A program made the translations under genes and the position numbers. Below, piece by piece: positions 30,951 to 31,050 of a stretch of 64,000 nucleotides of DNA. The DNA is from Escherichia coli (GTDB lineage: Bacteria > Pseudomonadota > Gammaproteobacteria > Enterobacterales > Enterobacteriaceae), in the NCBI RefSeq assembly GCF_051903065.1, contig NZ_CP178438.1. One strand, given 5' to 3'. Position 1 is the first letter of the stretch. Each line of letters starts with the position of its first letter. The notes beneath the pieces are model-generated. The model worked only from the letters and a program-made list of their open reading frames with translations. It was not told the origin of the DNA and made no database searches.

Positions 30951-31050
30951 GCCGGATGCGGCGTGAACGCCTTATCCGGCCTACAAAATCATGCAAAATC
31001 AATATATTGCAGGAGTCTCGTAGGCTTGATAAGCGTAGCGCATCAGGCAC
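30951..31050. repeat. REP/BIME-type extragenic palindromic element(s)
   Basis: gccggatgcggcgtgaacgccttatccggcctac plus a second degenerate copy (gtaggcttgataagcg...catcaggcac). Confidence 0.7.

Follow-up and report, generated by a model that had tools for sequence, protein, structure and literature searches.

The 64,000-nt stretch of Escherichia coli DNA analysed here (the window) carries seven REP units at five sites, and we conclude with high confidence that all of them are E. coli REPs (palindromic units), short extragenic repeats of which one pair forms a single BIME-1 downstream of gyrB (site 1, 30950-31049) and another forms a decayed doublet between pstA and pstB (site 2, 62985-63050), with functions that would be those of the family. 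The two pairs had been reported in a preliminary description at 30951-31050 and 62985-63052, between yidB and gyrB and between pstB and pstA, respectively; the scan with REP consensus models bears this out, as both sites match the consensus, their positions hold to within 1-2 nt and the gene context is correct. Both are genuine REP/BIME copies, real but ordinary and already known in kind: REP and BIME have been described since the 1980s, with a published E. coli REP consensus, GCCGGATGCGGCGTGAACGCCTTATCCGGCCTAC (PMC12306157), and three standard REP query sequences (PMC11208160). The RefSeq feature tables of MG1655 list no repeat features at either locus. The two sites are of different kinds, site 1 being a canonical BIME-1 with a predicted IHF site and site 2 a decayed, atypical REP pair within an operon.

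The units were located with a covariance model (R1) built on the REP stem from an alignment of 38 non-identical Y and z1 (short-Z) units of other Escherichia genomes, all taken from one pattern scan of public genomes for BIME copies. When R1 was run across the whole window with filters off, it returned exactly seven units at five sites, scoring 63.6 to 28.1 bits (E = 2e-16 to 6e-6), and the next match had E = 0.37. Site 1 comprises a Y-type REP, the left arm of the BIME-1 on the 3' side of gyrB (30950-30984, + strand; no mismatches to the consensus over 30951-30984; 63.6 bits, E = 2e-16), and an inverted short-Z (z1) REP as the right arm (31020-31049, - strand; one mismatch to GCCTGATGCGCTACGCTTATCAGGCCTAC; 40.5 bits, E = 1e-9). 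Site 2 comprises a degenerate z1-like REP (62985-63014, + strand; 28.1 bits, E = 6e-6) and a Y-type REP (63016-63050, - strand; 55.4 bits, E = 6e-14), whose consensus match spans 63016-63049(-) with one mismatch. The remaining three units, all missed earlier, are single, diverged REPs: a variant, TGTCGGATGCGATGCTGACGCATCTTATCCGCCCTAC, after the tisB terminator (11318-11354, + strand; 29.9 bits, E = 2e-6) and a variant of z1 length, TGGCGGATGCGCGGTGCTTATCCGCCCTAC, between yidC and mnmE (40143-40172, - strand; 37.7 bits, E = 9e-9), both 100% identical in K-12, and a Y-like unit, TGCCAGATGCGGCAAAAAGCTTTATCTGGCCTAC, proximal to phoU (61410-61443, + strand; 38.8 bits, E = 4e-9) and absent from K-12. 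The earlier count of two REP sites must therefore be raised to five, only four of the seven units having been named. Nowhere in the window is there a match to the z2 type (long Z), and a generic REP pattern with an 11-nt loop, a loop length that is wrong for REP, gave no match either.

GC-rich hairpins at the 3' ends of genes could also be chance palindromes or ordinary terminators outside the REP family, but the probability of this is practically nil. Three of the units (both units of site 1 and the Y of site 2) lie within 0-1 mismatches of their consensus, and such matches are not expected by chance: none is expected in 100 dinucleotide shuffles for the Y consensus, and the short-Z consensus likewise found none in dinucleotide-preserving shuffles. 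Exact consensus matches that shuffled sequences never yield and R1 E-values as low as 2e-16 speak against chance hairpins, while the lack of a U-run after the REP stems, and the presence at site 1 of a separate canonical terminator next to the element, speak against terminators; the consensus matches, the shuffles and the R1 scan already refute this reading. The stem itself is conserved. In an alignment fitted to the model, 95.5% of the stem cells of the seven copies are paired, with compensatory changes at four pairs, whereas controls in which the partner was shifted by 1-3 columns are only 23-42% paired. Thus, the unit at 40143-40172 has a compensatory G-C in place of the usual C-G, and a compensatory A-U pair preserves the stem of the unit at 61410-61443. 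The GC/TT internal stem mismatch is visible in the R1 alignments, and six of the seven units have the CTAC foot (GTAG/CTAC), the exception being 62985-63014, which has TTAC. All seven units are extragenic: none falls within a coding sequence annotated in the collinear K-12 or O157 records.

Site 1 has the architecture of a BIME-1 in full. On its + strand, TGCCGGATGCGGCGTGAACGCCTTATCCGGCCTAC and GTAGGCTTGATAAGCGTAGCGCATCAGGCA are separated by 35 nt, and the second of these blocks is, but for one mismatch, a short-Z REP in reverse complement (31020-31048, - strand). A BIME-1 is defined as z1 and Y in inverse orientation, joined by a long, well-conserved L linker that often carries an IHF site, and present in single copy (PMC3333891). 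Among 126 listed Y-linker-Z pairs from public genomes, linkers of 33-36 nt lead to a short Z in 94 cases, to an unclassified Z in 7 and to a long Z in none, which, together with this definition, equates the short Z with z1. The 35-nt linker of the window (30985-31019) is AAAATCATGCAAAATCAATATATTGCAGGAGTCTC and agrees with the consensus of 58 canonical 35-nt linkers from other genomes, AAAAtcgTGCAAATTCAATATATTGCAgaAacCtt, at all conserved positions except one, a T>A change. The 238-nt spacer between gyrB and yidB contains only these two REP units, in single copy and without a tandem array. The inverse Y and z1, the conserved 35-nt L linker and the single copy together identify site 1 as a canonical BIME-1 (RIP/RIB), one Y and one z1 placed tail to tail at the 3' end of a transcription unit (gyrB). 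It departs from the usual copy in three respects. The T>A change turns the common L motif ATTCAA into AATCAA and thereby produces an exact WATCAANNNNTTR match, that is, a perfect IHF core (AATCAATATATTG) at 30997-31009; the z1 arm has GCTTGAT for GCCTGAT, its one mismatch; and the right flank lacks the GTTTTGCGTTTGTC-like motif that adjoins most of the harvested copies. By this sequence match the linker contains a putative IHF site, as BIME-1 linkers often do. A strict IHF pattern is not enriched in a scan of the whole window (4 found, 3.4 expected), so that the credibility of the candidate site derives from its place in the conserved L motif and not from statistics.

The element lies in the 3'UTR of gyrB, with the stop codon of that gene (31070-31072, minus strand) on one side and yidB on the other. 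Read along the gyrB transcript, the stop codon is followed by 20 nt, the z1 REP, the linker, the inverted Y REP and a separate terminator hairpin (30909-30940, - strand; GGGCGGAGA-UCA-UCUCCGCCC, then UUUUUAUUU). This intrinsic terminator, which is context and not REP, was read from the sequence and has a 14-bp stem in the fold; a simple terminator scan did not flag it. The RNA fold of the gyrB 3'UTR is very stable (-73.7 kcal/mol, z = -6.9) and pairs the two REPs into one long hairpin, with the terminator staying separate. By analogy with known REPs, this hairpin most likely shields the 3' end of the gyrB mRNA from 3'-5' exonucleases, and the linker, at the level of DNA, most likely binds IHF.

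The gyrB BIME-1 might act mainly on DNA, as an IHF-bent, protein-bound element (IHF, possibly gyrase or Pol I) that organises local supercoiling or insulates transcription, and not mainly as an RNA stabiliser; we regard this as possible but doubtful. The perfect IHF core within a conserved linker is what such a role would call for, and Boccard and Prentki reportedly found in 1993 that IHF binds elements of the BIME-1/RIB class at the 3' ends of transcription units. Gyrase cleavage, however, is said to have been described by Espeli and Boccard in 1997, to go by the title, at BIME-2 and not at BIME-1. L linkers of BIME-1 often bear an IHF site, and REPs have been reported to stabilise mRNA, to act as terminators and to bind IHF, Pol I and gyrase (PMC3333891), so that the literature of the family lends the DNA-level role some support. 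Against it, a structural role cannot be essential when about 15% of genomes lack the BIME at this site, and effects on the RNA are unavoidable because the element is transcribed within the gyrB 3'UTR, upstream of the terminator.

The + strand of site 1 also matches an Rfam family of small RNAs, RF02751 (ES036, CssrF), whose 43-nt model aligns to 30985-31027(+) with 48.4 bits, above the gathering score of 37.6. Taken at face value, this would place an sRNA gene opposite gyrB, which we consider very improbable. The RF02751 consensus consists of the BIME-1 L linker plus GTAGGCCU, and five of the ten unrelated loci on which the model was tried, from E. coli, E. albertii and Pseudocitrobacter, gave a match in the BIME-1 linker, as did the K-12 gyrB locus. 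The founding ES036 transcript comes from another K-12 locus (740211-740253), has no mapped transcription start and was suggested by its authors to be a processed 3'UTR fragment (PMC4676190). No promoter-like site was found in 30700-31200, and the + strand at site 1 is antisense to the gyrB 3'UTR. We therefore reject an sRNA gene at site 1 and take the match as a property of the repeat: to judge from its consensus, RF02751 effectively models the BIME-1 L linker itself. Since it scores above threshold at unrelated loci and in other genera, it will tag many BIME-1 elements as sRNA genes.

REPs are non-autonomous and would owe their spread and rearrangement to the REP-associated tyrosine transposase (TnpAREP, or RAYT), acting in trans from a gene that would lie outside the window. 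The substrates of TnpAREP are REPs, with the GTAG foot and the stem mismatch both needed (PMC3333891). Site 1 resembles the REPINs mobilised by this enzyme in that its inverted doublet folds into one long hairpin and both arms bear the required GTAG/CTAC foot; it differs in that no RAYT/TnpAREP gene is found within the window, nor in the collinear K-12 region, and in that no clean empty site was found at gyrB-yidB. Of 5426 complete E. coli genomes, 4622 have the BIME-1 together with its flanks and nearly all have the locus itself, so that the element is dispensable, about 15% of the complete genomes lacking it there. In the BIME-less allele of the one genome examined (strain CH436), some 40 nt of unrelated sequence stand in its place, which points to replacement and leads us to reject clean excision as the origin of this allele; it thus gives no direct evidence of transposase-mediated mobility. 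The insertion is old, as E. albertii (L013) has an orthologous BIME-1, with 93.7% identity across yidB-BIME-gyrB in one alignment.

Repeats of this type are abundant in the host. A query containing the BIME finds a median of at least 38-39 places per E. coli genome, which confirms the description of these elements as host-typical extragenic repeats. They had further been taken to support an Escherichia/Shigella-type backbone, and here the E. coli origin stands, but the type of REP does not serve as an identifier, the same architecture occurring in Pseudocitrobacter. Among the matches listed by the pattern scan, E. albertii, E. whittamii and two Pseudocitrobacter genomes have Y, 35-nt L and short-Z combinations at many loci, and the copies in Citrobacter, Kosakonia, Salmonella, Pluralibacter and Superficieibacter have other linkers; this taxonomic list is a sample, and a genus missing from it means nothing. 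In Pseudocitrobacter faecalis and a Pseudocitrobacter MAG (L040-L059, L076-L094), 27 of the 41 listed matches are canonical BIME-1, with a linker containing TTCAATATATTG. The decisive evidence for an E. coli backbone lies in comparisons of the flanks, which share 98-100% identity with E. coli genomes and run collinearly with K-12; the window as a whole corresponds collinearly to about 3.845-3.9095 Mb of K-12 MG1655, with an identity of 96-99%.

Site 2 is situated inside the pstSCAB-phoU operon, where it separates the stop codon of pstA (63056-63058) from the start codon of pstB (62963-62965), and consists of two REP units placed tail to tail and only 1 nt apart. The z1-like unit, TGCCTGATGCACTTCGCTAATCAGGCTTAC, is off consensus at 4 of 30 positions and has the foot CTTAC instead of CCTAC, so that the GTAG motif has become GTAA and is lost; given that TnpAREP needs GTAG (PMC3333891), this unit is probably inert as a mobile element. 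It still forms an inverted-repeat pair (I4) with 31020-31051 of site 1, at 84% complementarity. The inverse Y and Z and the very short 1-nt linker, which resembles the S linker, recall a BIME-2. That class, however, consists of tandem repeats in which Y is combined with z2 (long Z) and the linkers are S and s/l/r (PMC3333891), whereas the Z unit of site 2 is of z1 length (30 nt) and decayed, with four mismatches and GTAG changed to GTAA, and the site is a single pair without a tandem array. Because BIME-2 needs z2 and tandem copies, we reject this assignment and prefer to describe site 2 as an atypical or degenerate REP pair, z1-like and Y, old and partly decayed.

In position, site 2 is comparable to the intercistronic REPs, lying between two cistrons (pstA and pstB) of one operon and forming stem-loops in the mRNA. 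Intercistronic REPs such as those of malE-malF and hisJ-hisQ reportedly set differential expression within operons (Newbury and colleagues in 1987, Higgins and colleagues in 1982), and a pst REP is said to be mentioned in work on pst operon transcripts by Aguena and colleagues in 2002; a literature search for a study of the pstA-pstB REP returned nothing relevant. The mRNA fold shows two adjacent stem-loops, marginally more stable than shuffled sequence (z = -1.8). In the sense of the mRNA, the Y stem starts 6 nt past the pstA stop codon, and the z1-like unit ends 4 nt upstream of the pstB Shine-Dalgarno sequence. If site 2 behaves like its relatives, it would act as an internal decay barrier or processing point in the pst mRNA. 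It may also lower the translation of pstA, as it lies within 15 nt of the pstA stop codon: according to the passage of PMC12306157 that cites Liang et al. [quoted passage not shown] This limit takes in the REPs proximal to pstA (6 nt) and to phoU (8 nt) and leaves out the one proximal to gyrB (20 nt).

Nearly every genome (5421 of 5426) has the pstA-pstB locus, and in the rows sampled there the REP pair shows 96-100% identity. In K-12 and others, 2099 of 5426 E. coli genomes, the pstA-pstB spacer contains an additional repeat of about 92 bp (…CCCCTCGCCCCTCTGGGGAGAGGGTTAGGGTGAGGGG…), for which the window represents the empty site; in K-12 this repeat (L002:1967-2058) adjoins the position that matches window 63050-63056. 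It is flanked by a direct repeat of AACCGTGT that looks like a target-site duplication, and the family to which it belongs occurs at a median of 4 copies per genome.

The window contains three segments that K-12 does not share, at 41558-44163 (GC about 35%), at 44525-45292 (an IS1) and at 54035-61464 (7.4 kb, GC about 30%), and the preliminary description held that these islands contain no REP sequences, in keeping with a foreign origin. The first part of that claim is true of the two smaller segments and fails for the largest, at whose phoU-proximal end lies the REP at 61410-61443. The second part is weak, because one REP is inside an island and the scarcity of others has no statistical weight: K-12 has 584 REPs in 4.64 Mb (PMC3333891), a density that predicts about 1.4 REPs for the 10.8 kb that K-12 does not share, and the chance of finding none would be about 0.26. 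The backbone, with 6 REPs in 53 kb, is about average. With only about 1.4 REPs expected in the 10.8 kb, no depletion of REPs in the islands is demonstrable.

The phoU-proximal REP begins 8 nt after the phoU stop codon (61452-61454) and is confined to the 1084 genomes (of 5426) with the 54035-61464 allele, the others aligning only from window position 61465 on. It is conceivable, though we think it unlikely, that the unit served as the recombination joint of an effector island that replaced cbrBC-yieKL-bgl, and that it brought with it a REP-dependent cut in PhoU translation; what would follow is taken up below. The island at 54035-61464 stands in place of the K-12 genes cbrB-cbrC-yieK-yieL-bglHBFG and contains two paralogous genes for products of about 810-835 aa; they share about 74% DNA identity and are labelled type III effectors in O157:H7. 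The island also has an ORF of 395 aa with pentapeptide repeats. Its right-hand breakpoint falls inside the last phoU codons, the protein ending in …DPKE* here and in …DSDK* in K-12. On its distal side the REP abuts a hairpin with a 9-bp stem (61381-61409; CAGCCCGGT…ACCGGGCTG) and no clear U-run, which in strains with the island may form the 3' end of the pst-phoU transcript.

The other two segments lie near the tryptophanase genes. The 2.6-kb insert at 41558-44163, between mnmE and tnaC, replaces a K-12 spacer of about 150 bp and contains a 725-aa ORF with an N-terminal domain of the ShET2 enterotoxin (Pfam Toxin_15, E = 9e-50). The IS1 at 44525-45292, 768 bp long and with an InsB-type transposase (Pfam DDE_Tnp_IS1), separates the tnaC leader from tnaA, is bordered by a 9-bp target duplication, GGATCACTG, and probably disturbs expression of the tryptophanase operon.

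Elsewhere the window differs from K-12 in a few places. At 28660-28662 the dgoRKADT galactonate operon is missing (about 4.75 kb in K-12, 3870544-3875296); the junction is no simple deletion, the sequence just to its left having diverged from K-12 dgoT. At 19010-19503, about 490 bp more than in K-12 are present at glvG; a 440-aa ORF is intact here but a pseudogene in K-12, and glvBC forms a single ORF of 625 aa. Rfam matches to expected backbone RNAs were found for istR (10725-10854, - strand), adjoining tisB, for the ROSE_2 thermometer (25533-25605, - strand), upstream of ibpA, and for AsdA (36504-36584, + strand), antisense to dnaA.

Beyond the quality of annotation the significance of these findings is small, the elements occupying positions of conserved and known kinds. 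What is useful is the complete, validated list of the seven REP units of the window, which corrects the earlier count, together with a note for curators that RF02751 (ES036/CssrF) flags BIME-1 elements as "sRNA" and a caution that few REPs in some 10 kb of islands carry no statistical weight. Should the unlikely proposal for the phoU-proximal unit prove true, a REP would have been the point of exchange, and island-bearing lineages, about 20% of E. coli, would reduce the translation of PhoU, while lineages that have the bgl operon would not.
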